Shown: positions 1,249 through 29,809, numbered from the stretch's first letter. The stretch: 29,809 nucleotides of DNA from an uncultured bacterium (GCA_965651105.1 CBFGRG010000001.1:1-29809), one strand, 5' to 3'. Notes: generated by a model not told the origin, from the letters alone. Made by a program: numbers and translations.

Positions 1249-1256
1249 ACGGGCAG

Positions 1257-3533: not shown

Positions 3534-3553
3534 GGTGAAATCGTTCCCCTTTG

Positions 3554-5225: not shown

Positions 5226-5248
5226 CCGAACAGGTCGAGGCGTACAAT
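5220..5248 (+). promoter_or_regulatory. candidate sigma70-type promoter of the SARP regulator
   Basis: TACAAT at 5243-5248. The position 17 nt upstream (5220-5225, GTCAAT) coincides with the outermost repeat of site B. Confidence 0.4.
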
Positions 5249-5293
5249 GGCGCAGGGCCTACATCGTTCGCCATCGCGACAGGATCCGGTACC

Positions 5294-13017: not shown

Positions 13018-13887
13018 TCAGGCTCCAGTGCCCCAGCCGAGCCGCCGCCACGCTGATGCGGGCAGGATCTGGTCGACTCGCTCCAGCACCCAGTCGGGCC
13101 GGTCGGTCGGGGCGATCCCGGCCAGCATCGCCGGCGTCGTCTCGCCCGTCAGCACAAGCGCCGAAGGCATTCCCGCGTCGAGCGCCATGCGGATATCGGT
13201 CATCAGCCGGTCGCCGATCATCACACAGCGCTCCGCCGGCAGCTCCAGCCGCGCCAGCGCCGCCGCGAGCATGTACGGGTCGGGCTTGCCCGTATGCCGC
13301 CGCAGCGTCGTGCCGGTGCATCCCTCGACCGCGCCGATGATCGCCGCCGCGTCCGGCTCGCCCCGGCCACCGGGAAACGGGCAGAACCGGTCGGGATTGG
13401 TCGCCACCAGAAAGGCGCGACCCTCGGTGCGGATCGCGTCAAAGGCGATCTGCAGCTTCCGGTAGTCGAACCCCCGGTCGTAACTGGCGATCACGATGTC
13501 GATCTCGCGCGGATCTTCCGACATCCGGATCCCGGCAGCGGAGAGCGCATCCTTCAACGGCTGCTCGCTGATCGGGAACACCGTCGCCTCGGGGTGGTGC
13601 GCCAGCAGCCAGGCGGTCATCGTGTCGACCGTGTTCAGCACCTGCTCGGGCGTGGCAGCGATCCCGAACCGCGCCAGCTTGTGCACATACTCGGCGGGCG
13701 AGCTGGTCGGATTGTTGGAGAGGAACAGCACCTTCCGGTCGAGGGCGGCCAGCGCCTCGATCAGCCGCCTCGCGCCAGGCAGCGGGTCATCGCCGAGATA
13801 GATCGTGCCGTCGAGGTCAAAAACATACCCGTCCAGCAACTTGTCCGGACGGGCTGCTCCCGCGATGGATGTCGATTCCGACTGCAT
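13018..13887 (-). CDS. HAD-IIA family phosphatase (NagD/AraL-like)
   Basis: Motif I DLDGTIY; motif II SNN; TNPD; GKP; motif IV GDRLMTDI; LVLTG. Confidence 0.92.
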   Translation of the reverse strand: MQSESTSIAGAARPDKLLDGYVFDLDGTIYLGDDPLPGARRLIEALAALDRKVLFLSNNPTSSPAEYVHKLARFGIAATPEQVLNTVDTMTAWLLAHHPEATVFPISEQPLKDALSAAGIRMSEDPREIDIVIASYDRGFDYRKLQIAFDAIRTEGRAFLVATNPDRFCPFPGGRGEPDAAAIIGAVEGCTGTTLRRHTGKPDPYMLAAALARLELPAERCVMIGDRLMTDIRMALDAGMPSALVLTGETTPAMLAGIAPTDRPDWVLERVDQILPASAWRRLGWGTGA

Positions 13888-13995
13888 TTCTGCTCACTCT
13901 CTCATCACCGATCGCAAAAACTCCGGGCACCATCCCGGCGCCGCGACCTGCCCTCAGCATACCCAGCCTGACCAGAGCGCGCTGCACATTCGTCG

Positions 13996-14009
13996 TGCAC
14001 ATCGGTGCA
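13996..14009. promoter_or_regulatory. palindromic operator 1 (TGCAC-ATCG-GTGCA), putative SorC-family site
   Basis: Perfect TGCAC-N4-GTGCA in the divergent HAD/AraM intergenic region; recurs at 18526, 19507 and 22105. Confidence 0.7.
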
Positions 14010-14025
14010 GGACGAGACTCAGTCA

Positions 14026-14055
14026 TTGACACCCCATCTGCTTCATACGTAGCCT
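14026..14055 (+). promoter_or_regulatory. sigma70-type promoter for the araM-like/derI-like operon
   Basis: TTGACA-N18-TAGCCT. Confidence 0.55.
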
Positions 14056-14116
14056 CATTTCATGACCCGGCGTCGATTGGCCGCGTCCACTCCCGGGATG
14101 CACACGGAGCACGAAC

Positions 14117-15490
14117 ATGACCTTGCGAAACGACCGGCCGCCTGTCCAGCGCGCGCTCGCCGGCGCCTCCACCACGCGCCAGATCGTGATGCGCGCCGGC
14201 GCGCTCGCCGAAACGGGGCGGCTCGCGCGGGAGATGTTCCCCGGTCGCACCGCGGTAATCGTCGCCGACGGAAACACGTTTCGGGTCGCCGGTGAGTGGG
14301 TCCAGGCATCGCTGCGCGATGCTGACGTGTCGATCGCCGAGCCGATCGTGTTCCCGGCCGAGCCGACGCTCCGGCCGGATGTGAGCAATGTCGCGACGAT
14401 CCTCACGCATCTCGGTCCGGACACCGTGCCCGTCGCCGTCGGCTCGGGCACGATCAACGACCTGACGAAGCGCGCCGCCCACGAGGCCGGTCTCCCCTAC
14501 CTGGTGGTGGCCACGGCCGCATCGATGGACGGCTACACCGCCTCCGGCGCGGCCCTGATCGCCGATGGGGTAAAGCAGACATTCCCGTGCGCGGCGCCCG
14601 AAGCGGTGATAGCCGACCTCGATGTGCTCGCGGCGGCGCCGGAGGGCATGACCGCGTCAGGCTACGGCGACCTGATCGGCAAGGTCACGGCCGGCGCCGA
14701 CTGGATCCTGGCCGACGCCCTCGGCATCGAGCCGATCCTGCCCGACGTGTGGGAGATGGTTCAGGGACCGCTGCCCGGCATGATCGCCGATCCCGAACGA
14801 TATTTCCGGGGCGAGCGGGACGAAATCGAGCAGCTCTTCGGCGGTCTGGTGATCACCGGGCTCGCGATCCAGGCCGCCGGCGTCACGCGCCCCGCCTCGG
14901 GCAGCGAGCACCAGTTCAGTCACCTCTGGGAGATGCGCGGGCTCGAGCACCAGGGCGAGCTGGTATCCCACGGCAAGAAGGTCGGCCTCGGCACGATCGT
15001 CTCGACCACGATCTACGAGCGCCTGCTGGCCACCCCGGTCGACCGGCTGGACATCGATCGCGCGGTCGCGGCATGGCCGAGCTGGCCCGAGATGGAGGCG
15101 ATCATCCGGCGCAGCCACGACCACCCCGCGCTGGTCGAGAAGGCACTGGAGGAGTGCCGCGCCAAGCACCTGACGCCGGACGCGCTCGGCGACCGACTGA
15201 CCCGGCTTCGGGACCAGTGGCCGGAGCTCGCGCCGAAACTGCGCGACCAGCTGCTGCCGGTCGGCCAGCTGCGAAGCCTGCTCAGGCAGGCACACTGCCC
15301 CACCCGCCCCGAGGACATCGGGCTCACCCTGACGCAGCTGCGCGAGAGCTACCTCACCGCTGGCCACATCCGCCGCCGGTACACCGTTTTCGACATCGTG
15401 CACGAGGCGGGCCTGCTCAACACGATCGTGGACGACATCTTCTCGCCCGGCGGTCCCTGGGAGACATCTGAAGGAGACGCGACGCCATGA
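14117..15490 (+). CDS. sn-glycerol-1-phosphate dehydrogenase family protein (AraM/EgsA-like, dehydroquinate-synthase-like fold)
   Basis: GSGTINDLTK; TAASMDGY; GYGDLIGK..ADW; SGSEHQFSH; HGKKVG metal-binding His motifs; RBS GGAG. Confidence 0.9.
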   Translation: MTLRNDRPPVQRALAGASTTRQIVMRAGALAETGRLAREMFPGRTAVIVADGNTFRVAGEWVQASLRDADVSIAEPIVFPAEPTLRPDVSNVATILTHLGPDTVPVAVGSGTINDLTKRAAHEAGLPYLVVATAASMDGYTASGAALIADGVKQTFPCAAPEAVIADLDVLAAAPEGMTASGYGDLIGKVTAGADWILADALGIEPILPDVWEMVQGPLPGMIADPERYFRGERDEIEQLFGGLVITGLAIQAAGVTRPASGSEHQFSHLWEMRGLEHQGELVSHGKKVGLGTIVSTTIYERLLATPVDRLDIDRAVAAWPSWPEMEAIIRRSHDHPALVEKALEECRAKHLTPDALGDRLTRLRDQWPELAPKLRDQLLPVGQLRSLLRQAHCPTRPEDIGLTLTQLRESYLTAGHIRRRYTVFDIVHEAGLLNTIVDDIFSPGGPWETSEGDATP

Positions 15491-15990
15491 ACACGGACCG
15501 ATTCGTCCTCGCGATCGGCGCCGACAACGCCGGGGCCGACCTGAAAAACACGATTCGTGACGCGCTCGCCGGCGACGATCGGGTTGAGATTGTGGATTAC
15601 GGCGTCGCCAGCGCCGACGATGACACCGCCTATCCACACATCGGGCTGAACGTCGCCCGGGCGATTGCAGAAGGACAGGCGCGCCGCGGCCTGCTGATCT
15701 GCGGCACGGGCATTGGCATGGCGATTTCGGCGAACAAGGTTCCCGGCGTCCGCGCCACCGTCGCGCACGACTCGTATTCGGTCGAGAGGTCGGTGCTCTC
15801 CAACAACTGCCAGGTGCTGACCCTCGGAGCCCGCGTGGTCGGCCCCGAGCTGGCGCAACGCCTGGTGCGGGAATGGCTGTCATATGAGTTCGACGAAGGT
15901 TCAGCCTCAGCCCAAAAGGTCGCCGTGATCAGCGATTACGAGATCGCGCACGGCGGTTCGCGCCACGCCGAGCGAGACCAGGGCTGCTGA
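15487..15990 (+). CDS. RpiB/LacA/LacB family sugar-phosphate isomerase, DerI/EryI (D-erythrulose-4-phosphate isomerase)-like
   Basis: ICGTGIGMAISANKVPGVRA core; GADNAG, AHDSYSVERSVLSNNCQVL and SASAQKV variants; ATGA overlap with the upstream gene. Confidence 0.88.
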   Translation: MNTDRFVLAIGADNAGADLKNTIRDALAGDDRVEIVDYGVASADDDTAYPHIGLNVARAIAEGQARRGLLICGTGIGMAISANKVPGVRATVAHDSYSVERSVLSNNCQVLTLGARVVGPELAQRLVREWLSYEFDEGSASAQKVAVISDYEIAHGGSRHAERDQGC

Positions 15991-16000
15991 CGGGCACGCA

Positions 16001-17536
16001 TCAGGCACGGCTGAGATCGCTCAGCGCTCGCTGCTGCTCCGTCGTCCGCTCGTACAGCTCGCGATAGATCGCATATCCGGCGTCGTAGACCGAGGCGCGG
16101 TCCGGGTTCGGATCGACCCGCCGCGCGATCCGCGTCCAGCCGCCGACAAGGCGCTCCTCCGAGTCAACGATGCCTGACGCCAGCCCGGCGAGCATCGCAT
16201 CGCCATAGGACGCCCCGAGCGTGCGCTCGGGGATCAGTTGCGACACGCCGGTGATGTCGCTGACGATCTGCACCCACACGTCGCCCTGCGTGCCGCCGCC
16301 GACCGCGATAATCGAGTCCGGCATGGCTCCGGCTTCAGCCATGATCTCGAGGTGGTGCCGCACGCCGTACCCGACCCCCTCCAGGATCGACCGGTAGAGG
16401 TGACCGCGCGTGTGACGCAGCGTGAGTCCGGCGAACATGCCGCGGGCATCGGGATTGTGCAGCGGGGTGCGCTCGCCGGCGAAATACGGTAGGCAGATCA
16501 CCCCCTCGCTGCCGGCCGGGACAGCGTCCGCGAGATCGCACAGTTGACCATAGGCGCTCTCGCCAGTCTCCGCTTCCTTCCTGCGCTCGTCACCGGCCAG
16601 CTCCTCCCGAAACCACTTCGTTATCAGGCCGGACGTCGCCATCCCGCCCATGATCGCGCGGCGCCCCGGCAGGCTGTACGCTGCCGGCCACAGGCGAGGA
16701 TCGGTCCTGTGCTCCGCAACGAGGTTCAGCAGAAAGAAGGTGCTGCCATACATCAGCATCATCTGACCCGGCTCGACCACCCCCACACTCAGCGACTCGG
16801 CGGCCACGTCGATTGTGCCCGGCGTAACGGGGATGCCCTCCGGCAAGCCCGTTTCGGCGCTGGCAGCGGCTGTGACGTACCCTGCAATCTCGTTGGTGTC
16901 CAGTAACCGTGGCAGCCGATCGAGCCCGATGATGTCCCCGGCGAAGCGATCATCCCACTCCAGCCGCTCGATATTGAAGAGTGGATTGAACGCCGACGCC
17001 GTGTGGCGGTCGATCACATGCTCGCCTGTGAGGCGATAGACGATGTAGTCGCTTGACGAATGCACCATCGCCGTGCGGGCGAACAGCTCCGGCTCGTGTC
17101 TGCGCAGCCACAGGATCTTGGGTCCCACCGCCTGAGTGCTGAGCGGCATCCCGCCCAACGCGAAGATCGCCTCGGCACCGTGGCGCTCCTCCAGCCAGGC
17201 GATCTCTGCCGTGGCGCGCGTGTCGATCCCATAGAGCACCGCCGGTCGCAGCGGATGGCCGTCGGCGTCGAGCGGCAACATGCAGGGTCCGATCGCGCTG
17301 ATTGCGACCGCCCCGACATCGGCACTCCGGTTGCTGTCCTTCAGCAGCCGCTGGCAAATCTCCACGAACTCGCCCCACCAGAGCCCGTCGGCGTCGTGCT
17401 CGGCCCAACCTGGTCTGGGAAAGCTGGTGTCATGGTGCACAACTGTCGAGGCGACGACGTCCCCTTCAGACGTACACAGCACGCCTTTCGAGCTGGACGT
17501 GCCGATATCGACGCCGAGCAGCAGTGTCCCAGCCAT
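16001..17536 (-). CDS. FGGY-family carbohydrate/polyol kinase (xylulokinase-like, substrate unknown)
   Basis: LGVDIGTSSSKG; PGWAEHD; IDTRA; GPKILWL; PYFAGERTP..DARG; AVGGG. Start ATG 17536 after GAGAGGA. Confidence 0.93.
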   Translation of the reverse strand: MAGTLLLGVDIGTSSSKGVLCTSEGDVVASTVVHHDTSFPRPGWAEHDADGLWWGEFVEICQRLLKDSNRSADVGAVAISAIGPCMLPLDADGHPLRPAVLYGIDTRATAEIAWLEERHGAEAIFALGGMPLSTQAVGPKILWLRRHEPELFARTAMVHSSSDYIVYRLTGEHVIDRHTASAFNPLFNIERLEWDDRFAGDIIGLDRLPRLLDTNEIAGYVTAAASAETGLPEGIPVTPGTIDVAAESLSVGVVEPGQMMLMYGSTFFLLNLVAEHRTDPRLWPAAYSLPGRRAIMGGMATSGLITKWFREELAGDERRKEAETGESAYGQLCDLADAVPAGSEGVICLPYFAGERTPLHNPDARGMFAGLTLRHTRGHLYRSILEGVGYGVRHHLEIMAEAGAMPDSIIAVGGGTQGDVWVQIVSDITGVSQLIPERTLGASYGDAMLAGLASGIVDSEERLVGGWTRIARRVDPNPDRASVYDAGYAIYRELYERTTEQQRALSDLSRA

Positions 17537-17677
17537 GGCAGCGGCTTCCTCTCTCAACGAATCGATGCGATCTATCCGGTTCCGAACACGCCTCCGGCAA
17601 TGCGTCGGCTGCAGACATGCCGCCCGACTGGGCCGTCCCCGGGAGCGGCACGACGAGGCGTGGACGCAGCGGCTGGA

Positions 17678-18412
17678 TCAGTTGCCATCCAGATGCGCGA
17701 GCAACGCGGTCGGATAATCTGAAGTCACTGAATCCATGCCTCGCCCAATCGCGCTTTCGAGGTCATCGACGGTGTCGCACGGGCCGCCGCCAACGGTGAG
17801 CCCGTGCTCGTGGGCGCGCGCCACAAGCTCGGCAGCGGTCTCCCGATATCGATGCAGGTTGACTTGCGTACAGCCGAGTCGCCGCGCCGTGCCGATCGAA
17901 TCAGGATCGTCAGGCCGGGCGATGAATGCGGTCGCCAACGTTGGAGCGAGCCGCCGGACCGCCTCGACTGCCCCCACCTCGAACGAGGTGACGAGCGATT
18001 GTCGCTCTATGCCGCGCGCGCGAATCTCGTCGACGATCCCTTTGGCGATCCGTTCAATCCGCTCAGGCGTGTCCTTCTTGATCTCGAACTGGAGGACCTC
18101 GAACGTCGCGAGCACGTCAAGCGCCTCGGCCAGTGTCGGCACGCCCACCGGCTCCGACCAGGACGGGCAGGTGCCACGTGCGTCGAGTGCGGCAAGCTCC
18201 GCGGCGGAAAAGCTCTCGACCGCGCCGGTCGCGTTGGTGGTTCGATCGACCGTCGCGTCATGGATGACGACCAGCACATCGTCGCGGGAGATCCGGACAT
18301 CGAACTCGACCCGCCCCAACCCGAGCTGCCGGGCGTACTCGAAACCTGCGATCGTGTTCTCCGGCGACTCACCCATGGCGCCACGATGGCCAATGATCTG
18401 GATGCGCTTCAC
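17678..18412 (-). CDS. cytoplasmic glycerophosphodiester phosphodiesterase (GDPD, UgpQ-like) 1
   Basis: GTG 18412 after GGAGG; IGHRGA..PENT; EFDV; IHDATVDRTT; EIK; no signal peptide. Confidence 0.92.
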   Translation of the reverse strand: MKRIQIIGHRGAMGESPENTIAGFEYARQLGLGRVEFDVRISRDDVLVVIHDATVDRTTNATGAVESFSAAELAALDARGTCPSWSEPVGVPTLAEALDVLATFEVLQFEIKKDTPERIERIAKGIVDEIRARGIERQSLVTSFEVGAVEAVRRLAPTLATAFIARPDDPDSIGTARRLGCTQVNLHRYRETAAELVARAHEHGLTVGGGPCDTVDDLESAIGRGMDSVTSDYPTALLAHLDGN

Positions 18413-18525
18413 CCGTACCTCCCGCCTGTGAATCGGCGCCCCGGTCACGCTCCCGGACACCATCTGGATCGTGTCGATCGGTGCCAGCATACCCGCAGAG
18501 ACGGCATGTTCTTGCACGATTTGCA

Positions 18526-18539
18526 TGCACATCCGTGCA
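18526..18539. promoter_or_regulatory. palindromic operator 2 (TGCAC-ATCC-GTGCA)
   Basis: Perfect motif 114 nt upstream of the corrected GDPD1 start. Confidence 0.7.
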
Positions 18540-18665
18540 GATCGTGATATGAATCGGTGTCACGACTTGCGCGTTCGGCTTCTTGCTTCGGGAGTCTCTT
18601 CGCTTCCGGCGGAGGGCAGGGTCAGCTCAAATTGCGCCCATCAGCAGTCCGCCGCGAGAGCTGGA

Positions 18666-19394
18666 TCACCGGGCCGCCAGCAGCCGCAACATCTCCGTCG
18701 GCACGTCGGAGGTCGCAGCATCGACTCCCCAGTCCAGGCAGCGCTCAAGCGCCTCGGGCGTGTTGCACTGAAACCCGACCACACGCACGCCTTCTCGGTG
18801 CGCCGCGGCGACCATCTCCCGGGAGCTCGTATTCAGAGAGACGTCCACCTGGGTGCACCCCATCCTGAGCGCGTTCTCGAGATAATCAGGGGTATCGAAC
18901 GCGCCAATATAGGCTCGTGCCTGGTCCGGTGCGAGGCGGCCGATCGTCTCGACCGCGTGAACCTCGAACGAAGACACGATCACTCGAGATTCGAGGTGAC
19001 GATCCTGGACCATGCCCAGTACCGCCTCGGCAAGGCGCTCCATGCGCTCGTCGGTGTCCTTCTTGATCTCGATCTGGATCGTACCCATGTCCCCCAGGGC
19101 ATCAAGCACCGACTCCAGGGTGGGCACCCCCACCCGCTCCGGCCAATCCGGCAATGACGCCCGCGCATCGAGCGCGGCCAGCTCCTCGGCGGTAAACGCA
19201 CCCACCGGTCCGGAGCCATCGGTCGTTCGATCGACCGTGCCATCGTGGATCACGACGAGCTGACCGTCCTTGCTGAGATGGACATCGAGCTCGACGGCCG
19301 AAAGCCCGAGCTGCCGAGCGTGACGAAATCCCGGAATCGTGTTCTCGGGCACCTCATTTCGCGCCCCCCTGTGCCCAACGATCTGAAATGTCAC
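18666..19394 (-). CDS. cytoplasmic glycerophosphodiester phosphodiesterase (GDPD, UgpQ-like) 2
   Basis: Start GTG 19394 (or TTG 19397) after AGAGGGGAG; VGHRGA..PENT; ELDV; IHDGTVDRTT; EIK. The track's 509-aa version over-extends into the antisense strand of the regulator. Confidence 0.92.
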   Translation of the reverse strand: MTFQIVGHRGARNEVPENTIPGFRHARQLGLSAVELDVHLSKDGQLVVIHDGTVDRTTDGSGPVGAFTAEELAALDARASLPDWPERVGVPTLESVLDALGDMGTIQIEIKKDTDERMERLAEAVLGMVQDRHLESRVIVSSFEVHAVETIGRLAPDQARAYIGAFDTPDYLENALRMGCTQVDVSLNTSSREMVAAAHREGVRVVGFQCNTPEALERCLDWGVDAATSDVPTEMLRLLAAR

Positions 19395-19506
19395 CAAAAC
19401 GCTCTCCCCTCTGTGCTGCTCCGTCACGCGACCGGCAGGCGGTCGATATCGTGCACAGCGGCAGGTTCGCATACTCGCACAGGCCATATTGGTGCACAAT
19501 AGTTTT

Positions 19507-19520
19507 CGCACGGATGTGCA
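19507..19520. promoter_or_regulatory. palindromic operator 3 (CGCAC-GGAT-GTGCA; minus strand TGCACATCCGTGCG)
   Basis: One mismatch to operator 2; lies between divergent GDPD2 and the SorC-family regulator. Confidence 0.65.
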
Positions 19521-19571
19521 TGGGGCATGACCGACAAGACGTGGCGAGAACGTCGCCGGGAGATACCTGTC

Positions 19572-20561
19572 ATGAGCGATCAACCGATCGAGGTGGAGCG
19601 GACCGAAGGACACTCGGCGTCGGTAGCGACGAACGCCGAGATCATCACCTCCGTGGCGCGACTCTACTATCTCGAACGGCTGGGGCAGGCAGAGATCGCG
19701 TCGATCTACGGCGTGTCTCGATCGACAATCTCGCGAATGTTGACGGCGGCACGGGAGCTCGGCATCGTGCGCATCACGGTGGACGACTACGATCCGCGGG
19801 ATCGCGAGGCAGAGCGGCAGCTGACCAGCCAGTTCGGGCTGCGGCATGCGGTCGTGGTGCGGTCGGTCGAAGGCTCGGATGTCGCCACCCGGCGGGCCGT
19901 CGGGTACTTCGGCGCGCCGGAAGTCGAGGGCTGGATCGAGTCGAGCCACATCGTCGGCGTCGCCGGCGGTCGTTCGATCGGGGAGCTGCTGCGCGCGATC
20001 GGCCACAGAAGCCAGCCACAGGACCTCAAGGTTGTGCAGCTGATGGGCATGATCGGCTCCAGCCCGAGCAGTGTCGACGCGTCCGAGCTGAGCCGAATCC
20101 TCGCCAGCCGGTTTCACGGCGAGTTCCACAACATCAGCGCGCCGGCCTTCGTGAAGGACAAGCGCACGCGGGACCTCTTTCTCTCCCACTCCCAAATCCA
20201 GTCCGTCTGGAGTCGGTTCGAAGCGCTCGACCTCGCGTTTATCGGCATCGGCACCCTCGAGGACTCGGTTTTTGTCGAACGCAAGGTGCTCGATGATTCC
20301 GAGCTGGCGAAAGCAAGGCGCTCAGGCGCGGTCGGCGAGATTTGCGGACGCTTCTTCGACCAATCCGGGCAGGAGTGCGACTCGCCGTTCCGGAACCGCG
20401 TCGTCAGCATCGAGCTCGACGCACTTCGGAAAGGGAAAGAGGTGGTTGGTGTGACCACCGGCGCCTCGCGCGGCGAAGCTGTCCGCGCGGCGCTTCGCGG
20501 CGGACTTGTGCACTCACTGGTGATGGACGACACCTGCGCGCGGAGCGTGCTCGACGGGTGA
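19572..20561 (+). CDS. SorC/DeoR(Bsu)-family sugar-phosphate-binding transcriptional regulator
   Basis: ARLYYLERLGQAEIASIYGVSRSTISRMLTAARELGIVRI HTH; GVAGGRSI; GIG; GAVGEICGRFFD sugar-binding domain. Start ATG 19572 (GGAG, 9 nt) preferred over 19527. Confidence 0.93.
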   Translation: MSDQPIEVERTEGHSASVATNAEIITSVARLYYLERLGQAEIASIYGVSRSTISRMLTAARELGIVRITVDDYDPRDREAERQLTSQFGLRHAVVVRSVEGSDVATRRAVGYFGAPEVEGWIESSHIVGVAGGRSIGELLRAIGHRSQPQDLKVVQLMGMIGSSPSSVDASELSRILASRFHGEFHNISAPAFVKDKRTRDLFLSHSQIQSVWSRFEALDLAFIGIGTLEDSVFVERKVLDDSELAKARRSGAVGEICGRFFDQSGQECDSPFRNRVVSIELDALRKGKEVVGVTTGASRGEAVRAALRGGLVHSLVMDDTCARSVLDG

Positions 20562-20587
20562 CTCCTGCCGGGTCGATCCCGGGTACG

Positions 20588-21952: not shown

Positions 21953-22104
21953 TCCTTCAAGACTCCTCTCCTGTGCGATCGTCGCTGACCTCCGGCCAAT
22001 GCATCCTGCCGGAATCGCACACCGTCGCCTGAGCCGACGCTGCTGGCCCATCAGGATGTACGGTCATCAAGTCACAGCGTGGCACAGAATGGCACGCTTG
22101 TAGC

Positions 22105-22118
22105 TGCACATGTGTGCA
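22105..22118. promoter_or_regulatory. palindromic operator 4 (TGCAC-ATGT-GTGCA)
   Basis: Perfect motif in the divergent sulfatase/sulfatase region, which also holds extra TGCAC half-sites at 22115, 22166, 22175 and 22189. Confidence 0.7.
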
Positions 22119-22133
22119 CACCCCTCTTTCTGT

Positions 22134-22163
22134 TTGACGCTGTCCGATGCGTGCTGCTAGCGT
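22134..22163 (+). promoter_or_regulatory. sigma70-type promoter for the sulfatase2-ABC-phoD unit
   Basis: TTGACG-N18-TAGCGT, same spacing as the promoter at 14026. Confidence 0.55.
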
Positions 22164-22272
22164 GGTGCACACGTTGCACGAACGGATTTGCACGCGCATC
22201 GCTCCGCGAGCCGCACACAGCGATCGACGGCATCCTCGAGCGGGCATTGCAGCAGACGAGGCAGCAGCCACC

Positions 22273-23724
22273 TTGACCACCACGTGGAGACCCAACATCG
22301 TCGTCTTGATGGCCGACGACCACCGGGGCACGGAGATGAGTCACCTGCCTCACGGGCAGGCCCGGACGCCGGTGCTCGATGCCCTCGCAGCACGTGGCGT
22401 CTCGTTCGACGGCGCTCACTGCCAGGGATCGATGATCCGGGCCGTTTGCGTGCCGAGCCGCGCCAGCCTCATGACCGGACGGAATATCTTCGCGTCGTCC
22501 AGCGACCCGACCGGCGGCGACTTCCAATGCGCCATCACCATTCCGCCCGACCTCGAAACCTTCCCCGAAGCGCTCCGCCGCGCCGGGTATCGCACCCACG
22601 CCGTGGGCAAGTGGCACAACGACACCGCGTCATTCCAGCGCTCCTTCTCCAGCGGCGACGCGATCATGTTCCTGGGCATGAGCGATCACCATGAGGTACC
22701 GACGTGGACCTATGATCCTGACGGCGAATACGCAGGCGCGAACGCCTGGAACTTCGATGAGCCACATACGGAAGAGGACACGGCCGGGAGCTATGTGTAC
22801 CGCGAAGGCTTTTCCAGCGACATCTTCGCGGACGCCGCGATCGACTTCCTCGGTCAGGACCACGGCGACGATCCGTTCCTGATGTACGTCGCCTTCACCG
22901 CCCCCCACGACCCGCGCACGCCCCCGCCGGGATGGGAGGTCGACCCTCAATCGATCGAGTTGCCGCCCAACTTCCTGCCCGAACATCCCTTCGACAACGG
23001 AGAGATGGAGGTGCGGGACGAGCTGCTGGCGGAATTCCCGCGCTCCGAAGCGGAAATCCGGCAGCACATCGCCGACTACTACGGCATGATTGCCCACCTC
23101 GATCACACGATTGGTCGCATCGTCGGCGCGATCGAGGAGCACGGCCTGGCTGACGACACCGTGATCATCTACACCGGCGACCACGGGTTGGCGGTGGGCC
23201 AGCACGGCCTGATGGGCAAGCAGAACCTTTACGAGCACAGCCTCCGCGTCCCGCTGGTGATAGCCGGTCCCGGCGTTCCGGCCACCGGTGTCGTCCACGG
23301 ACTTTCATGGCACGCGGATACCACGGCGACGATCTATGCGCTCGCGGGCTTGCCGCCCAACCCATCGGCGGAAGGCACCTCACTGATCGACAGCAACGGA
23401 GTCATTGCCGCACCTCGGCGGACACTTGGGGCCGCCTACGAGTACAGCCAGCGATCGTTTCGGGACCATCGGCACAAGCTCATCCGCTACTGGAAGGTCC
23501 GGGACACTGTCCCGAATCCAGGCACCACGCCGGGAACCGACATGGTCCAGCTCTATGACCTCGAGCGCGACCCGTGGGAGATGGACAACCTCGCGGACGA
23601 CCCGAGTTACGCGGAGACCCTCGAGCGCCTCAATCACGGGCTCCAACAGTGGCAGCGAGATGTCGACGATGTCCAGCTCGCTTTCCACCCAGGGATCGGT
23701 GACGCGACAGGAGCATGTTCATGA
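22273..23724 (+). CDS. formylglycine-dependent sulfatase family hydrolase 2 (cytoplasmic)
   Basis: Probable TTG start at 22273 (GAGG upstream); PNIVVLMADDHR; CVPSRASLMTG; GKWH; APHDP; TGDHG; GKQNLYE. Confidence 0.92.
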   Translation: MTTTWRPNIVVLMADDHRGTEMSHLPHGQARTPVLDALAARGVSFDGAHCQGSMIRAVCVPSRASLMTGRNIFASSSDPTGGDFQCAITIPPDLETFPEALRRAGYRTHAVGKWHNDTASFQRSFSSGDAIMFLGMSDHHEVPTWTYDPDGEYAGANAWNFDEPHTEEDTAGSYVYREGFSSDIFADAAIDFLGQDHGDDPFLMYVAFTAPHDPRTPPPGWEVDPQSIELPPNFLPEHPFDNGEMEVRDELLAEFPRSEAEIRQHIADYYGMIAHLDHTIGRIVGAIEEHGLADDTVIIYTGDHGLAVGQHGLMGKQNLYEHSLRVPLVIAGPGVPATGVVHGLSWHADTTATIYALAGLPPNPSAEGTSLIDSNGVIAAPRRTLGAAYEYSQRSFRDHRHKLIRYWKVRDTVPNPGTTPGTDMVQLYDLERDPWEMDNLADDPSYAETLERLNHGLQQWQRDVDDVQLAFHPGIGDATGACS

Positions 23725-23873
23725 GCGTTTGACGATTGGGGCACCGATGTACGGGACATTACAGGGGCCACGGGGCTGAACGTTCGCAACGGATCAGCAT
23801 CGTATCCATGGGGAGGCAAATACCGGCATCGAGCAGGCAGTCCGCGGAGTAGCCCAGACAGGAGACCACGGCA

Positions 23874-25184
23874 ATGACCAGGATGAATCGACGACGTTTC
23901 ACAAGTAGCGCGGTGGCGGCTGGCGCGGCGGCGGCCGTTGGTGGCGCGGCGAGCGCGTCGTCCCCGAAGCGGAGTGCCGCCCCGGCGGTGATACGGGCGC
24001 AGAACGCCCCCGTCGAGATCGTCTTCTCCAACATCTGGGGAACGCCGCCGGGTGGTGACGCCCCGGAAAACAAGCACCCGGTCGACCTGGTGATCGAGGC
24101 GTTCAACGAGCAGAGCACCGACGTCAAGGTCACGGGCCGCGTCGACGGCGGGTACTACGAGGGGCTCCAAAAGCTCCAGGCCGAGCTTGCGGCGGGATCT
24201 CCACCCGCCCTGTGCATCACCCCGTGGAACAGCATCAACTGGGCCGATGCAGGGCTCGGCATCATCAACCTTGAAGACATCGCCGGTGACGAGGTTGCCG
24301 AAGTCTTCGGGAACCTCAAGGATCAGGTGATCCCGTTGGTGCAGATCGATGGGAAGACCAAGGGCGTGCCGTACGCGTTTTCGACCCCGGTTGTCTATTA
24401 CAACAACGATATCCTCGCCGACGCGGGTGTCGCGGCCGAGGATCTGTTCCAGAGCTGGGCTTCGTACAGTGAGGAAGGTCTCAAGGTCCAGGCGGCGACC
24501 GACGGCAATCCGATCTTCGGGTTCCTTGGCGATAGCCAATGGACAGCCCAGAGCCTCATCCAGTGCAATGGCGGCTTTGTGCTGAACGAAAATGGCGAGC
24601 CTGTGATGGACAGCCCGGAGGCCATTGCGGCAATGCAGGCGGTTGCCGACATGGATAGCCAGGGGCTGTATGACAGGTCGACGGCGAGTGAGGTGCGTGC
24701 ATCGTTCACCGCTGGCTCCACTGCGTCGTGGATCGGCAGCATCGCCTCGCTCGGTGGGCTCAAGAACACGGTCACCTACGACCTTCAGACGTCGACATTC
24801 CCGGTGTTCGACGACAAGCCGCGCATGATGTCGAGTGGTGGATCGTTCATCGGGGTCTACGCGCGCGAGGAAGAGCAACAGCAGGCGGCCTGGGAGTTCC
24901 TCAAGTTCGCGTTGTCGGAAGAGGGGTACTCGATCTGGATGCAGACGGGCTATCTCAACGCGACCAAGTACGACCTTCCCATCATCGAGGGCCAGGAAGC
25001 GGCGTACACCCAGCTCGAAGAGGGTCTGACCCGCGAGACGCCGTGGCCGACTGCGCGCGGCGGCGAGCTGCTGGCGATCTGGCAGAACTACGTGTCCCGT
25101 ATCTGGGCAAATGACATCAGTGCCGAGGAAGGGTGCCAGCAAGCGGTCGAGGAGATCAACGCGGTTATCGAATCAGCTGGCTGA
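23874..25184 (+). CDS. ABC transporter substrate-binding protein (family 1, UgpB-like), Tat signal
   Basis: MNRRRF Tat motif; PYAFSTPVVYYN; SGGS; TGYL; RBS CAGGAG. Confidence 0.88.
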   Translation: MTRMNRRRFTSSAVAAGAAAAVGGAASASSPKRSAAPAVIRAQNAPVEIVFSNIWGTPPGGDAPENKHPVDLVIEAFNEQSTDVKVTGRVDGGYYEGLQKLQAELAAGSPPALCITPWNSINWADAGLGIINLEDIAGDEVAEVFGNLKDQVIPLVQIDGKTKGVPYAFSTPVVYYNNDILADAGVAAEDLFQSWASYSEEGLKVQAATDGNPIFGFLGDSQWTAQSLIQCNGGFVLNENGEPVMDSPEAIAAMQAVADMDSQGLYDRSTASEVRASFTAGSTASWIGSIASLGGLKNTVTYDLQTSTFPVFDDKPRMMSSGGSFIGVYAREEEQQQAAWEFLKFALSEEGYSIWMQTGYLNATKYDLPIIEGQEAAYTQLEEGLTRETPWPTARGGELLAIWQNYVSRIWANDISAEEGCQQAVEEINAVIESAG

Positions 25185-25217
25185 TCACTCGCGCCAGGAA
25201 ACGAAAGGACTGCAGAC

Positions 25218-26507
25218 ATGTCTGGCATCACCCGACGAACCCTCATTGGCCGCGCGGGAGCAGCCGGCGCGGCACTCGCGGGAGGCGCATCGCTTGCCGG
25301 CCTCTCGCCCGCGGTCATGGCAGCGCAGGACGTGACCGAGATCACGTTCTACAACATCTGGGGAACGCCGCCGGGCGGCGAAACCTCGGACACCAAGCAT
25401 CCGGTCGATCAGGTCATCGACGCATTCAATGAGCAAAGCACCGACATCAAGGTGACCGGGGAAACGCCGGGGAACTACTTCGAAACGCTCCAGAAGGCGC
25501 AGGCGCAGATCGCCGCCGGCGATGCGCCCGCGCTGATCACGACGCCATGGGCGAACATCAACTACGCCTACGAAGGGCTCGGGATCATTCCGCTCGAGGA
25601 CATCGCCGGCGACGAGGTGGCAGAAGCGTTCAGCGCCTTCCAGGAGCAGGTCATACCGCTGGTCCAGGTCGATGGCAACACCGTGGGCATGCCCTACGCA
25701 TTCTCCTGCCCGGTCATCTACTACAACGCGGATGTCTTCGAAGAGGCCGGCGTGGATCCGGACGAGATGTTCGCGACGTGGGCCAGCGTGCTGGAACAGG
25801 GACCGGCCATTCAGGAAGTGCTGGACGGCAATCCGATCATTGGCGAGATCACCAATCCCGACTGGCCCGCCCAGAGCATCATCCAAAGCAACGGAGGAAC
25901 GGTGCTCGATGACGACGGCGTGCCGGTGATGGACAGTCCGGAAGCCATCGAAGCGCTCCAGGCGATCGCCGATCTCGACAACGCGGGCCTGTATGACCGG
26001 TCCACCACTGCTGAGCGACGCGCGTCGTTCCTCGGCGGATCGACGGCCTGCATCATCGGGAGCATCGCGTCGCTGGGGGGCCTGCAAAACAACGCAACGT
26101 TCAACCTGCAGACCCACACCTTCCCGACCTTCGGCGACAAGCCGCGCAGGATGGCAAGCGGCGGCTCCTTCATTGGGATCTACGCCCGCGAGGAAGAGCA
26201 GCAGCAGGCGGCATGGGAATACCTCAAGTTCGCCATGTCCGAGGAGGGCTACGGTATCTGGATGCAGACGGGATACCTCAACCCCACCACCTACGACCTG
26301 CCTCGCCTCGAAGGCCAGGAGGCGGCCTACACCCAGCTCGATGAAGGCCTCACGCCCGAGACGCCGTGGCCGACCGCGCGCGGCGGCGAGCTCCAGGCGA
26401 TCTGGGGCGATTTCGTCGCCCGGATCTGGGCAAACGACATGAGTGCCGAAGACGGCTGCGCACAAGCGGTCGAGGAGCTCACGGCCATGATCGAACAGGC
26501 GAGTTAA
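25218..26507 (+). CDS. ABC transporter substrate-binding protein (family 1, UgpB-like), Tat signal, paralog of 23874..25184
   Basis: ITRRTL Tat motif; GNYFE; PYAFSCPVIYYN; SGGS; TGYL; RBS GAAAGGA. Confidence 0.88.
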   Translation: MSGITRRTLIGRAGAAGAALAGGASLAGLSPAVMAAQDVTEITFYNIWGTPPGGETSDTKHPVDQVIDAFNEQSTDIKVTGETPGNYFETLQKAQAQIAAGDAPALITTPWANINYAYEGLGIIPLEDIAGDEVAEAFSAFQEQVIPLVQVDGNTVGMPYAFSCPVIYYNADVFEEAGVDPDEMFATWASVLEQGPAIQEVLDGNPIIGEITNPDWPAQSIIQSNGGTVLDDDGVPVMDSPEAIEALQAIADLDNAGLYDRSTTAERRASFLGGSTACIIGSIASLGGLQNNATFNLQTHTFPTFGDKPRRMASGGSFIGIYAREEEQQQAAWEYLKFAMSEEGYGIWMQTGYLNPTTYDLPRLEGQEAAYTQLDEGLTPETPWPTARGGELQAIWGDFVARIWANDMSAEDGCAQAVEELTAMIEQAS

Positions 26508-26535
26508 GCCGCCTCGAACGGACCGAAAACCGTCT

Positions 26536-26582
26536 CACGGCCCACCACTCGTTCGCCTCGGCTGAACTGGTGGTGGGTCGTG
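26536..26582 (+). other. intercistronic stem-loop after the SBP genes
   Basis: CACGGCCCACCACTCGTTCG pairs with ...GAACTGGTGGTGGGTCGTG (about 19 of 20 pairs, counting G-U); no U-tract. Confidence 0.55.
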
Positions 26583-26627
26583 CGAGGGGCACAGCAATCA
26601 CTTCACACCACGGGGCAAGGAAGCTGG

Positions 26628-27581
26628 ATGGCGAGCATTCGCGTCACAACCCAGGGCGACACGTCGCCGAGCGACGTCAAGCGCCAGCGGTTCACCTGGT
26701 ACAGGATCAGGGAGGGCGCGACGCCCTATCTGCTCATCGCACCATTGCTGATCCTGGTGGCGATTTTCATTTACTGGCCACTGTTGTATTCGACGTATCT
26801 CTCGTTCTTTGACTGGAACTTCGTTCGCCCCGACAAGGACTTCGTCGGTTGGGACAACTACACCCAGCTGTGGGGTGATCCGCGCTTCATGCGCGCACTC
26901 AACGGAACGTGGATCTATTTCGTCACGCTGATTCCGATCCAGGTCTTTCTTCCACTCGGGCTGGCCATGCTCCTTTGGCCGATCCGACGTGCCCCCGGAC
27001 AGCACGCCTACCGCGTCGTCCTCTTTTCCCCAACGGTGGTCGCGTGGTCGGTGGGCGCGGTGATGTGGCTGTGGATCTTCAATCCGCTGCAGGGCCTGCT
27101 CAACAAGGTGCTCGCCGAGTTCGGTGTGGAGCGCATCAACTGGCTTTCGGATCGTGACACCGCGATCTGGACCGTGATCGTGGTGGCGACGTGGAAGACG
27201 CTGGGCTTCAACCTGCTGCTCTACCTGGCCGCGCTCGAGGCGGTGCCGCACGACTATGTCGAGGCGGCGTCACTGGATGGCGCCAGCAAGTGGCAGATCA
27301 TGAAAACCATCCGCTTCCCGCTCATCACACCGACATTCTTCTTCGTGCTCGTCACCACCGTGATCTCGGTGAACGACGACGTCTTCGGCGCGATCAACGT
27401 GCTCACGGAGGGAGGTCCATTCGAATCCACCACCAACATCGTCTATTACCTCTATGAGCAGGGATTCAGGTACTTCCAGATCGGTGACGCGAGTGCTGTT
27501 TCCATCATCATCTTCATCGCCACGGTCTTCCTGACCTGGCTGCAATTCCGCTTCATCGAAGGACGCGTGCATTATGGCTAG
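26628..27581 (+). CDS. carbohydrate ABC transporter permease (UgpA/MalF-like)
   Basis: ATG 26628 after AAGGA; FVGWDNY; GLLN..WLSD; EAA motif YVEAASLDGAS; YYLYEQGF. Confidence 0.93.
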   Translation: MASIRVTTQGDTSPSDVKRQRFTWYRIREGATPYLLIAPLLILVAIFIYWPLLYSTYLSFFDWNFVRPDKDFVGWDNYTQLWGDPRFMRALNGTWIYFVTLIPIQVFLPLGLAMLLWPIRRAPGQHAYRVVLFSPTVVAWSVGAVMWLWIFNPLQGLLNKVLAEFGVERINWLSDRDTAIWTVIVVATWKTLGFNLLLYLAALEAVPHDYVEAASLDGASKWQIMKTIRFPLITPTFFFVLVTTVISVNDDVFGAINVLTEGGPFESTTNIVYYLYEQGFRYFQIGDASAVSIIIFIATVFLTWLQFRFIEGRVHYG

Positions 27582-28446
27582 CATGGTGACCGCACCCAGG
27601 TCCCGAGCCGCGCAACGGGGAGACCGCGCGAGCAATTTCGTCGTGCACGTGGTCATCATCACGATCTGCGTGCTGACCATCTTCCCATTCTTCTGGATGT
27701 TCTCCACCTCCTTCAAGCAGGCGAACGAGGTCTTTACCAAAGACATCCAGCTGATCCCCCTGAACCCGACGTTGAGGAACTATCCGGATGCCTTCAGCTA
27801 CTTCCCGGTCGCGAACTGGTTCTGGAACAGCTTCGCCATCTCTGTGTTGACGACAGTGGGCAAGCTGGCGATCAGCATACCCGCGGCGTTCGCCTTCTCT
27901 CGGCTGCGATTCCCCGGTCGATCATTCTTTTTCGCCGTGGTCCTTGCGACGATGATTGTGCCCGGCGTGACGCACATCGTTCCGAATTATGTGCTCGTCT
28001 CGAATCTGGGGTGGCTCAACTCCTGGGCGGGTGTCGTGATCCCGTCCCTGCCAGCCACGGCCTTCTACATGTTCCTCATTCGTCAAAGCGTGATGACCCT
28101 GCCGCAGGAGCTGATCGACGCCGGCCGCCTCGATGGCGCCTCGACCCTCCAGCTGCTCTGGCAGATCGTCATCCCGAACATCCGGCCCGCCATCGCTGTC
28201 GTCAGCATCCTGTCATTCCTCGGGGCGTGGAACCAGTACCTGTGGCCGCTGCTGGTGTTGAACGATTTCGAATCGAAGACACTGGCCGTGGGCATGCAGT
28301 TCTTCACGTCGAACACCGAGTCGGCCCAGCTCTGGGGACCGATGATGGCGACCGCCGCGATCGCGACCATCCCGCCGCTGCTCATCTTCGCCCTTGCCCA
28401 AAAACAGATCATCTCCACGTTCGTCACCTCGGGCATCAAGGGCTAG
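27574..28446 (+). CDS. carbohydrate ABC transporter permease (UgpE/MalG-like)
   Basis: 8-nt overlap with the upstream gene; PFFWMFSTSFK; AFAFSRLRFPGR; ELIDAGRLDGA; WNQYLWPL; SGIKG C-terminus. Confidence 0.93.
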   Translation: MASMVTAPRSRAAQRGDRASNFVVHVVIITICVLTIFPFFWMFSTSFKQANEVFTKDIQLIPLNPTLRNYPDAFSYFPVANWFWNSFAISVLTTVGKLAISIPAAFAFSRLRFPGRSFFFAVVLATMIVPGVTHIVPNYVLVSNLGWLNSWAGVVIPSLPATAFYMFLIRQSVMTLPQELIDAGRLDGASTLQLLWQIVIPNIRPAIAVVSILSFLGAWNQYLWPLLVLNDFESKTLAVGMQFFTSNTESAQLWGPMMATAAIATIPPLLIFALAQKQIISTFVTSGIKG

Positions 28447-28477
28447 AGCCCACGGTGACGCCAGAAAGAGGCCCATT

Positions 28478-29809
28478 GTGACCGAACGAGACCTTGCCAG
28501 CCGCCTGCTCGCACACGTGCGCGAGCAGGCCGAAGCCCTGCCCGTCGCCGGAATGCGTGAGCGAGTCTTCAACCGTCGGACATTCCTCTTCGGTACCTCG
28601 GTATCCGGATTGGCGTTTACCCGAACGGTCGGCGCCACGCAGACGGCGAGTCCAGGTGCCTCCCCGGTGGCGGATCCAGCGACGAGAGAACACCTCTTCT
28701 CGCTCGGTATCGCCTCCGGCGATCCCACCCCTGATGGGGTCGTGCTGTGGACCCGCCTTGCGCCCCGCCCCTTCGATCCCGATGGCGGCATGGGCACGGC
28801 GCCGGTGGAAGTAGAGTGGGAGGTCGGATCGGACGAGGGGATGACCTCGATCGTCCAGCATGGGACCACCACCGCCCAAGCCGAGTGGGCGCATTCCGTC
28901 CATGTCGAGGTGACCGGCCTGAAGCCGGCAACATGGTACTGGTACCGCTTCCGCGTCGGCGACGTTGAAACCGCCATCGGCCGCACGCGCACCGCCCCGG
29001 CCACTGGCGACGGGGTCGACCGCCTTCGGTTCGCGTTCGCATCCTGCCAACGCTGGGACGTCGGACTCTACACCGGCTATCGCGACATGGCGTCCCAGGA
29101 CATCGACCTCGTGGTGCATCTGGGCGACTACATCTATGAGTCCGCACACAGCAGCCGCGACATCCTGCGCGAGGGGGATTACCCGGTCTCGGCGATGCTG
29201 GAGATTCGGACGCTCGAGAGCTATCGCTCGCGTTACGCCCTCTACAAGCTCGACCCGGACCTGCAGGCTGCGCATCAGCGGGCGCCATGGATCGTCACGT
29301 GGGATGACCACGAAGTGAACAACAACGTCTTTGGCATCATCAACAGGGACGAGCCGGCGGCACAGGCACTGCTCGAGCGGCGAGCCGCGGCATATCAGGC
29401 CTACTACGAGCATCAGCCACTCCGTGCGGCGGCGCGCCCCACCGGACCGGACCTCCAGCTCTACCGCCGGCTCTCCTTCGGCAACCTGCTCGACTTCAAC
29501 GTGCTCGACACGCGCCAGTATCGCTCTCCGCAGGGCATCGCCTGCGACGACGAGACCCGCGCCGCGAACGATGGCTTCTGCCCGGATTCGCTCGACCCCG
29601 AGCGGACGATGCTCGGCGCCGACCAGAAGCGGTGGCTGCTCGACGGCTTCGACGCCACCACCGCGCGGTGGAGCGTGCTGGCACAGCAGGTTCCTTTCGC
29701 GCGCATCGACAACGACGCCGCTCCGGACGTCGCGAGCTTCGGTGGCAAGGAGATGGACAAGTGGGACGGGTACGCCCACGAGCGCGAAGAGGTCGCGGCG
29801 GCCATGGCC
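28478..29809 (+). CDS. phoD: PhoD-family alkaline phosphatase/phosphodiesterase, Tat-exported, 3' end runs off the window
   Basis: Not in the track because it has no stop in the window. From GTG 28478 (alternative ATG 28553): ...FNRRTFL (Tat)...FSLGIASGDPTPDGVVLWTRLAP...YWYRF..GRTRTAP..FAFASCQ..HLGDYIYE..WDDHEV..LDTRQYR..MLGADQKRWL..WDGY; frame open to 29809. Confidence 0.95.
   Translation, partial: MTERDLASRLLAHVREQAEALPVAGMRERVFNRRTFLFGTSVSGLAFTRTVGATQTASPGASPVADPATREHLFSLGIASGDPTPDGVVLWTRLAPRPFDPDGGMGTAPVEVEWEVGSDEGMTSIVQHGTTTAQAEWAHSVHVEVTGLKPATWYWYRFRVGDVETAIGRTRTAPATGDGVDRLRFAFASCQRWDVGLYTGYRDMASQDIDLVVHLGDYIYESAHSSRDILREGDYPVSAMLEIRTLESYRSRYALYKLDPDLQAAHQRAPWIVTWDDHEVNNNVFGIINRDEPAAQALLERRAAAYQAYYEHQPLRAAARPTGPDLQLYRRLSFGNLLDFNVLDTRQYRSPQGIACDDETRAANDGFCPDSLDPERTMLGADQKRWLLDGFDATTARWSVLAQQVPFARIDNDAAPDVASFGGKEMDKWDGYAHEREEVAAAMA

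Follow-up and report, generated by a model that had tools for sequence, protein, structure and literature searches.

A stretch of 29,809 nt from an uncultured bacterium, a soil-type member of the Chloroflexota, referred to here as the window, constitutes the whole of contig C1 in a metagenome-assembled genome (MAG) of 3.41 Mb that is 83% complete and divided among 538 contigs. Between positions 13018 and 29809 the window carries a cluster of about 14 genes, which we read as a substrate-induced, SorC-repressed regulon predicted to serve phosphodiester import, cleavage, and polyol-phosphate breakdown, with a probability of about 0.55. The reading is carried by a predicted operator shared across the cluster, by the constant company of a Ugp-like importer and a cytoplasmic glycerophosphodiesterase (GDPD), and by the coupling of an AraM-like dehydrogenase to both.

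In the proposed mechanism, where the gene set, operator, and synteny are read from sequence and comparison but each catalytic step, its direction, and the effector are inferred, five or six transcription units would be repressed by a SorC-family protein through TGCAC-N4-GTGCA. PhoD, exported by the twin-arginine (Tat) route, would trim extracellular phosphodiester or phosphomonoester material. A Ugp-like ABC importer of the CUT1 type, with two paralogous solute-binding proteins (SBPs), would then take up a glycerophosphodiester-type compound (lipid head-group fragments, for instance), which two UgpQ-like GDPDs would cleave in the cytoplasm. Products lying beyond the ordinary GlpK/GlpD route would pass to four dedicated enzymes. 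The AraM-like dehydrogenase, working in the breakdown direction, would most likely convert sn-glycerol-1-phosphate (G1P) to dihydroxyacetone phosphate (DHAP), or alternatively a tetritol phosphate to a tetrulose phosphate, which an RpiB of EryI/DerI type could turn into erythrose-4-phosphate. Additionally, an XylB-like FGGY kinase might re-phosphorylate freed polyol or ketose, and an HAD-IIA phosphatase may free phosphate or avert the build-up of polyol phosphate.

Shared operator and SorC-family regulator

Gene calls were selected by third-position GC and domain matches, and families were assigned by Pfam and NCBIfam profile searches with equivalog cut-offs as given in NCBIfam. All the gene families that an earlier note on this DNA had named at 13018-29809 were recovered in this way. 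The genes and operators of the cluster are as follows.

13018-13887, minus strand: HAD-IIA phosphatase (AraL/NagD/PGP-like), divergent from the dehydrogenase; Pfam Hydrolase_6 and Hydrolase_like
13983-14009: operator O1, TGCACA-N7-TGCACA-N3-GTGCA, combining a direct half-site with the 14-bp palindrome
14117-15490, plus strand: AraM/G1PDH-like NAD(P) dehydrogenase, 457 aa; Pfam Fe-ADH_2
15487-15990, plus strand: RpiB-family isomerase, EryI/DerI type; its ATG overlaps the dehydrogenase stop
16001-17536, minus strand: FGGY kinase, XylB-like; Pfam FGGY_N and FGGY_C
17678-18490 (start alternatively 18532), minus strand: GDPD1, predicted cytoplasmic UgpQ-like glycerophosphodiesterase; Pfam GDPD 4.5e-31
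18513-18539: operator O2, TGCACG-N7-TGCACA-N3-GTGCA
18666-19394, minus strand: GDPD2, predicted cytoplasmic UgpQ-like glycerophosphodiesterase; Pfam GDPD 3.9e-41; GTG start downstream of a GGGGAGAG ribosome-binding site, as read from the sequence
19451-19520: operator O3, two imperfect sites (19451-19480 and 19492-19520), abutting the SorC start codon
19527-20561, plus strand: SorC/DeoR(Bacillus)/LsrR-family regulator; Pfam Sugar-bind PF04198 1.7e-60 and a helix-turn-helix
20588-21952, minus strand: sulfatase 1, Cys-type (CGPAR), no signal peptide
22105-22118: operator O4, exact palindrome with an upstream half-site (O4/O5 region 22080-22195)
22165-22195: operator O5, three TGCAC-type half-sites
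22147-23724 (true start possibly 22273), plus strand: sulfatase 2, Cys-type (CVPSR), heading the transporter operon
23874-25184, plus strand: SBP1, solute-binding protein of the CUT1 family; RR-type signal peptide
25218-26507, plus strand: SBP2, paralogue of SBP1, with an RR-type signal peptide
26580-27581, plus strand: UgpA-like ABC permease; Pfam BPD_transp_1
27574-28446, plus strand: UgpE-like ABC permease; Pfam BPD_transp_1
28553-29809, plus strand, cut by the contig end: PhoD phosphodiesterase/phosphatase with a Tat-type signal; Pfam PhoD_N and PhoD

The operator is a 14-bp palindrome, TGCAC-N4-GTGCA, present in four divergent or leading intergenic regions of the cluster and usually preceded, at a distance of 13-14 nt, by an additional half-site TGCAC(A/G). 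With at most one mismatch allowed, 6 matches are found against 1.24 expected, a count reached in no shuffle; three exact copies and one near copy among the six are intergenic, and O3 contains CGCACGGATGTGCA, one mismatch away from the palindrome. The exact palindrome occurs only four times in the whole MAG, three of these inside the cluster, and a genome-wide search found the three-part form confined to it. Furthermore, half-sites are about 9 times denser in the intergenic DNA of the cluster (20 in 1317 nt) than in its coding DNA (26 in 15475 nt). The composite site recurs at the HAD/dehydrogenase and GDPD/SorC promoters of the orthologous cluster in the nearest relative (L001/L081), where the GDPD/SorC intergenic region, which holds O3 in the window, has an exact site, and palindromes are also found at the divergent promoters of the relatives L003 and L004. 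Both the excess of matches and their retention in these relatives bear out the earlier proposal of a single regulon linked by one operator, and the grouping of the cluster genes under this predicted operator is thus supported. The fourth exact palindrome of the MAG, on contig C24, was considered as an operator and rejected; it lies inside a 459-aa open reading frame (ORF) and is taken as a chance occurrence.

The regulator has the N-terminal helix-turn-helix and the Sugar-bind domain of the SorC/DeoR(Bacillus)/CggR/LsrR type, with repeated half-sites near its presumptive target promoters, and it scores below every NCBIfam equivalog cut-off. It is probably autoregulated, since one operator site abuts its own start codon.

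Predicted phosphodiester import and cleavage

At the protein level the two SBPs share 68% identity. For SBP1 the best solved relatives include UgpB-type proteins of Thermus and Mycobacterium tuberculosis (about 1e-15), and for SBP2 they are the Escherichia coli UgpB structures 6x84 and 4aq4 (about 1e-18); the SBP-to-UgpB structure matches as a whole span only E of about 1e-15 to 1e-19. Scores against the UgpB model (45 bits for SBP1 and 71 bits for SBP2, cut-off 411) do not reach the equivalog level. Similarly, the permeases find their best NCBIfam matches in the UgpA model (170 bits, cut-off 335) and the UgpE model (164 bits, cut-off 297), below equivalog. The SBP genes (23874-26507) form a tandem duplication with a 1323-nt period that is common to L081, and SBP copy number varies among the related loci, with three in L109 and one each in L107 and L108. 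Homologues of SBP2 make up a fairly narrow family, mostly from Thermomicrobiales. A profile search of the window for an ABC ATPase (ABC_tran, UgpC-type) found none. CUT1 systems commonly share an ATPase encoded elsewhere; as the cluster itself has no ATPase gene and the roles given to HAD and FGGY are tentative, the "complete route" of the earlier note was overstated.

As that note had described, the cluster encodes two GDPDs predicted to be cytoplasmic; neither has a signal peptide, and the best model for both is PRK09454, which we take to be UgpQ-type. The partnership of GDPD and importer is not confined to the full cluster. A GDPD gene beside a SorC-SBP-permease-permease array stands alone, without the rest, in a Casimicrobiaceae MAG (L107) and in L108, whereas L109 from Thermomicrobiales has the full gene set and, beyond it, another SBP (its third) and a TIM-barrel gene of the AP_endonuc_2 family. 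In all three loci, L107, L108, and L109, the SBP operon is accompanied by a GDPD. Because the transporter's constant partner is a predicted cytoplasmic GDPD, the imported compound would be a phosphodiester, and this is the strongest argument for such a substrate. Import followed by cytoplasmic diester hydrolysis is therefore supported as the putative conserved core of the system, in agreement with what had been proposed for these genes. In L109 the AP_endonuc_2 gene (a xylose-isomerase-like TIM barrel) and the third SBP lie between the GDPDs and SorC (L109:4830-7155).

PhoD is recognised by Pfam (PhoD_N 8.5e-34, PhoD 3.7e-83) and carries the twin-arginine motif NRRTFLFG; its score against the NCBIfam equivalog is 444.9 against a cut-off of 1000, the gene being cut by the contig end. 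In the Thermomicrobiales loci L004, L006, and L008 the gene order is permease-PhoD-dehydrogenase, with gaps of at most 10 nt, which agrees with the earlier placement of a Tat-type PhoD in the unit. In the relative G001, which holds the L081 cluster, the genes past PhoD (DUF2298, PMT_2, and formyltransferase) are all unrelated, so PhoD is taken as the right-hand boundary of the cluster.

The cluster resembles the Ugp system of E. coli and M. tuberculosis (UgpB-UgpAE-UgpC, UgpQ) in combining a CUT1-type SBP, two permeases, and a cytoplasmic GDPD, and its best NCBIfam and PDB relatives belong there. Unlike Ugp, it scores far below the equivalogs, lacks an ATPase gene, and has two paralogous SBPs. 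Moreover, SorC with its operator stands in place of PhoB control, and the importer is coupled to a G1PDH-like dehydrogenase, RpiB, FGGY, and HAD. Tat-type PhoD together with GDPD is also reminiscent of the teichoic-acid recycling that PhoD and GlpQ carry out in phosphate-starved Bacillus subtilis. However, the GDPDs here appear cytoplasmic and GlpQ is secreted, and no PhoPR control is evident.

These parts could also be read as a pure phosphorus-scavenging island, an analogue of Ugp/UgpQ/PhoD in which GDPD, HAD, and PhoD would release phosphate and the carbon enzymes would merely clear the by-products. The classic parts of such a system are indeed present, from PhoD and a Ugp-like importer to UgpQ-like GDPDs and a phosphatase, and sulfatase-fold enzymes can show promiscuous phosphoesterase activity. 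Nevertheless, control appears to lie with a sugar-phosphate-type SorC having its own operator, with no Pho-type arrangement visible. The dedicated dehydrogenase, isomerase, and kinase imply carbon use, and the CxPxR sulfatase signature is intact in both sulfatases. We consider this explanation quite improbable and favour carbon-directed phosphodiester breakdown.

The AraM-like dehydrogenase and the four-carbon signal

The dehydrogenase matches Pfam PF13685 (Fe-ADH_2) with E 5.1e-33, and its best solved structure is 9h4x, a G1P dehydrogenase (E 6.5e-47), which we take to be B. subtilis AraM. The alignment with 9h4x keeps SMDGY, GDxxGK, and RPASGxEHxxSH, with about 40% identity over residues 46-304 as read by eye. 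Against the NCBIfam G1PDH model (NF002022) it scores 156.6 bits (cut-off 413), with only residues 21-301 aligned. Among 81 members of the family, D138, H265, H269, H285, K189, R258, R419, and R421 are at least 95% conserved; D138 and the histidines are the putative metal ligands of the family's Asp/His/His site. The database holds 6,367 homologues at E <= 1e-30, automatically named G1P dehydrogenase. The divergent HAD-IIA gene passes the TIGR01460 HAD-SF-IIA cut-off (121 against 100), and its PDB matches include the M. tuberculosis glycerol-3-phosphate phosphatase 4i9f (E 3.8e-21).

When the ORFs within 7 kb of the dehydrogenase were clustered over 79 dehydrogenase loci, the commonest neighbours were HAD-IIA (45 loci), FGGY (35), RpiB (24), a GlpT-like antiporter (16), and a GlpD-like dehydrogenase (15), followed by a GpsA-like dehydrogenase (14), SorC (13), GDPD (at least 11), DeoR (9), and an RbtT/DalT polyol transporter (7). 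The AraM-like dehydrogenase and HAD-IIA are thus a widespread and uncharacterised pair. The same two families are paired as AraM and AraL in the ara operon of B. subtilis. Unlike AraM, the window protein has 457 aa as against 414 for the 9h4x chain, it is accompanied by no arabinose genes or PcrB, and its context is one of import and breakdown, in contrast to the lipid synthesis of AraM. Beside the dehydrogenase/HAD pair, a ribulokinase above the AraB equivalog cut-off is found in Propionibacteriaceae (L015:11374-13038) and in a Singulisphaera locus (L071:14953-16638), echoing the araB...araL-araM arrangement of B. subtilis. A 368-aa ORF between RpiB and HAD in L015 has no Pfam match.

This likeness to AraM gives rise to an anabolic explanation, in which the dehydrogenase and HAD would synthesise either G1P or a polyol phosphate and, from the latter, the free polyol, the product being destined for an ether-type lipid or to serve as a compatible solute. 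Pairing of a dehydrogenase with a phosphatase is typical of polyol synthesis. Furthermore, AraM, the only characterised relative, supplies G1P for heptaprenylglyceryl phosphate (PMC4244643). Against such a role, a search of the MAG found no PcrB/GGGPS homologue, so that no known anabolic use for G1P is visible, although at 83% completeness this is weak evidence. The predicted operator is common to these genes, the importer, the GDPDs, and PhoD, and the neighbours seen across phyla are importers, GDPDs, GlpD-like dehydrogenases, and repressors. An anabolic role is accordingly rated as very improbable, and the catabolic regulon is retained as the preferred reading.

A midpoint-rooted FastTree phylogeny, from which no support values were read, splits the dehydrogenase family into two clades. 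Operons of the clade formed by Bacteroidota and the Planctomycetota-Verrucomicrobiota-Chlamydiota (PVC) group read SorC/DeoR-(GlpD-like)-GDPD-dehydrogenase-GlpT-like-HAD; the context in the Terrabacteria clade is HAD-FGGY-RpiB-(GpsA). In the former, GDPD adjoins the dehydrogenase in operons of Verrucomicrobiota, Bacteroidota, and Planctomycetota, along with the GlpT-like antiporter, the GlpD-like dehydrogenase, and HAD-IIA. Within the Terrabacteria clade, the window dehydrogenase falls among those of Thermomicrobiales, in a subclade that is additionally joined to the ABC importer, GDPDs, and PhoD. Occurrence of the GDPD link in both main clades would fit two separate origins. The present cluster stands out in bringing both types of dehydrogenase context under a single defined operator, along with PhoD, two SBPs, and two sulfatases.

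The coupling is also seen within the order. Among 120 other genomes, the dehydrogenase occurs in 8 and the SBP in 12; both occur together in 7, and in 5 of these they lie on one contig, 2-12 kb apart. As related genomes are non-independent samples, no statistical test was applied. The synteny survey that the earlier note had proposed thus gives co-occurrence with the SBP in 7 of the 8 dehydrogenase-bearing genomes, and a physical and phylogenetic coupling of the AraM-like dehydrogenase to the predicted importer and GDPDs is supported. The dehydrogenase is patchy in the order, 7 of its 8 carriers belonging to the window's own family, which is consistent with an accessory, niche-linked trait.

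The RpiB gene points in a somewhat different direction. According to a rival explanation, the cluster would be a four-carbon (C4) polyol regulon of erythritol/threitol type, in which the ABC system imports free polyols, FGGY, the AraM-like dehydrogenase, and RpiB lead to erythrose-4-phosphate, and GDPDs and PhoD are side activities. In the erythritol/threitol pathways a polyol phosphate is oxidised and then isomerised to erythrose-4-phosphate. The closest solved relatives of the window RpiB are the fungal RpiB-like proteins 3qd5 and 3sdw (168 bits), followed by 5ifz, taken to be Brucella RpiB; it is far less like the RpiB of E. coli (99 bits) or M. tuberculosis (51 bits). It reads GADNAG, LSNNCQVL, and GSASAQKV, matching 3qd5/3sdw and partly 5ifz, and thereby appears to lack the His and GGRHxxR motifs of canonical RpiB, which at these places has GxDHxG (His-containing), HN(D/N), where the window protein has SN(D/N), and GGRHxxR. 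Substitutions of this type occur in all 26 of the 26 RpiBs linked to the dehydrogenase family. The RpiB passes TIGR02133 "RPI_actino" (181.1, cut-off 168.2), and its earlier description as "DerI-like" stands at the level of resemblance but not by the curated DerI/EryI model NF051858 (159.9 bits, cut-off 240). Erythritol use in Yarrowia depends on EYI1, a fungal member of the same RpiB-like group with a resemblance to Brucella EryI (PMC5992420).

Further points in favour of the C4 polyol explanation are the dominance of FGGY, RpiB, and HAD in the dehydrogenase contexts of Actinobacteria and the RbtT/DalT polyol transporter in planctomycete loci. SorC is the family of EryD, and the AP_endonuc_2 gene of L109 belongs to the family of EryC. 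The FGGY kinase scores 309 bits with the XylB model (cut-off 380) and 164 bits with the GlpK model, and its best PDB match, 3ifr, is an uncharacterised FGGY kinase. Just upstream of the HAD gene, the L081 locus additionally carries a PdxA-family gene and a DUF1537-type (SBD_N/NBD_C) four-carbon acid-sugar kinase (L081:6204-8458), a further signal of C4 metabolism beside the cluster; neither gene is in the window.

Against free polyols as the substrate, the conserved minimal partner of the importer in L107 and L108 is GDPD and no polyol enzyme, the SBP occurs without the dehydrogenase in five genomes of the order, and its best solved relatives are UgpB-type. Moreover, PVC/Bacteroidota operons with this dehydrogenase have GlpT-like phosphate antiporters and no RpiB. 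The cluster does share FGGY, an EryI/DerI-type RpiB, and a SorC-family regulator with the erythritol systems of Brucella and Rhizobium (EryA, EryB, EryC, TpiA2, RpiB/EryI, EryD) and with DerK/DerI of Mycobacterium smegmatis. However, the window has no homologue of GlpD-type EryB, of EryC (AP_endonuc_2), or of TpiA2, an Fe-ADH_2 dehydrogenase being present instead, and unlike the Brucella-type pathway the enzymes here are linked with predicted import and cleavage of a phosphodiester. A regulon for free C4 polyols is therefore considered unlikely.

Several observations nevertheless weigh against phosphodiester import, cleavage, and polyol-phosphate breakdown as we propose them. Every "Ugp", "G1PDH", and "DerI" assignment lies below its curated equivalog cut-off, so that the earlier labels "UgpB/A/E-like", "AraM-type", and "DerI-like" hold as best-match resemblances and not as equivalogs. 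The window dehydrogenase belongs to the Terrabacteria clade, where the gene is usually found beside FGGY, RpiB, and GpsA and not beside GDPD, and in the relative L081 the SBP genes are not preceded by an operator. A catabolic regulon that holds both a phosphatase and a kinase looks as if it contained a futile pair. Finally, no RpiB is required to turn G1P into DHAP, and still the start of RpiB overlaps the stop of the dehydrogenase gene, which points to a C4 substrate. Because this RpiB is of EryI/DerI type, plain conversion of G1P to DHAP would not be the whole story in this lineage, and a four-carbon branch alongside, or instead of, plain G1P is likely.

Archaeal lipids have G1P as their backbone, and the same compound recurs as the repeating unit of lipoteichoic acid and as the free head group of phosphatidylglycerol. 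Teichoic acid, archaeal lipid, or necromass as the source of the substrate is conjecture. A broader proposal is that the AraM-like enzyme is the missing bacterial catabolic G1P dehydrogenase. With stereo-matched GDPDs and a Ugp- or GlpT-like importer, bacteria of at least five phyla would feed on the mirror-image ("wrong-handed") glycerol phosphate present in archaeal lipids, in lipoteichoic acid, and in the head groups of phosphatidylglycerol, and Terrabacteria would extend the scheme to C4 polyol phosphates through the EryI-type isomerase. We offer this as a tentative possibility, with the odds at present against it. Bacteria are known to import G1P through GpxB/UgpB and to grow on it, the catabolic enzyme not being named (PMC12718374, 2025). 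The UgpB-type protein of those marine Rhodobacterales binds both G1P and glycerol-3-phosphate, in line with the Ugp-like SBPs described here; unlike that work, which is confined to transport, the cluster offers a candidate intracellular step. The Phaeobacter G1P proteome table lists no induced Fe-ADH-type dehydrogenase, which neither supports nor refutes the proposal.

In the searchable literature no paper was found that gives an AraM-like/G1PDH enzyme a catabolic role or links it to erythritol or glycerophosphodiesters, and within that literature the word "undescribed", as used earlier for this system, is justified. The cluster and its relatives in several phyla provide a testable candidate for the enzyme that channels G1P into metabolism, together with GDPDs, SBPs, and a regulator whose operator is defined. 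Should a C4 polyol phosphate prove to be the substrate instead, the cluster would represent an erythritol/threitol-type route distinct from the Brucella and Mycobacterium pathways. Either outcome would give a function to thousands of proteins now labelled "G1P dehydrogenase".

Sulfatases and genomic setting

Both sulfatases bear the C-x-P-x-R signature (CGPAR and CVPSR) and match Pfam Sulfatase (5.8e-57 and 1.3e-49); they lack signal peptides, are 29% identical to each other, and score below cut-off with all sulfatase equivalogs. Their membership of the regulon, as claimed earlier, is upheld in the window by the operators that they carry, but they have no counterpart in the cluster of the nearest relative (L001/L081), which is otherwise the same. 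This suggests that two Cys-type sulfatases were added in the present lineage and that some substrates may also bear sulfate ester groups. Two FGE-sulfatase genes, on MAG contigs C324 and C317, could mature them. Distant sulfatases (24-29% identical) are found near the dehydrogenase in three PVC-type loci (L063, L041, and L051), possibly by chance in sulfatase-rich phyla.

The closest public relatives of the window genes are Chloroflexota of Thermomicrobiales/Sphaerobacteraceae type, and the GC content of the window is about 65%. Elsewhere in the MAG, a canonical GlpK (686 bits) lies beside a GlpD fragment on contig C31 and RpiA is encoded on contig C94, the cluster RpiB being the sole RpiB found. 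Since glpK-glpD and a housekeeping RpiA are thus encoded outside the cluster, its enzymes would be dedicated extras. A scan for promoters and terminators gave fewer promoter-like sites than in shuffles and is uninformative for this phylum.

On the other side of the HAD gene, 124 nt downstream and on the same strand, a 114-aa SnoaL_2-like gene (12549-12893, minus strand) may be co-transcribed with it. The remainder of the left half of the window is unrelated to the cluster; positions 1-8278 hold a 994-aa SARP/AfsR-like regulator, a BBE/VAO-type FAD oxidase, and two paralogous methyltransferases, and ThuA, an M20 peptidase, SCO1, and PCuAC are also encoded in this half.

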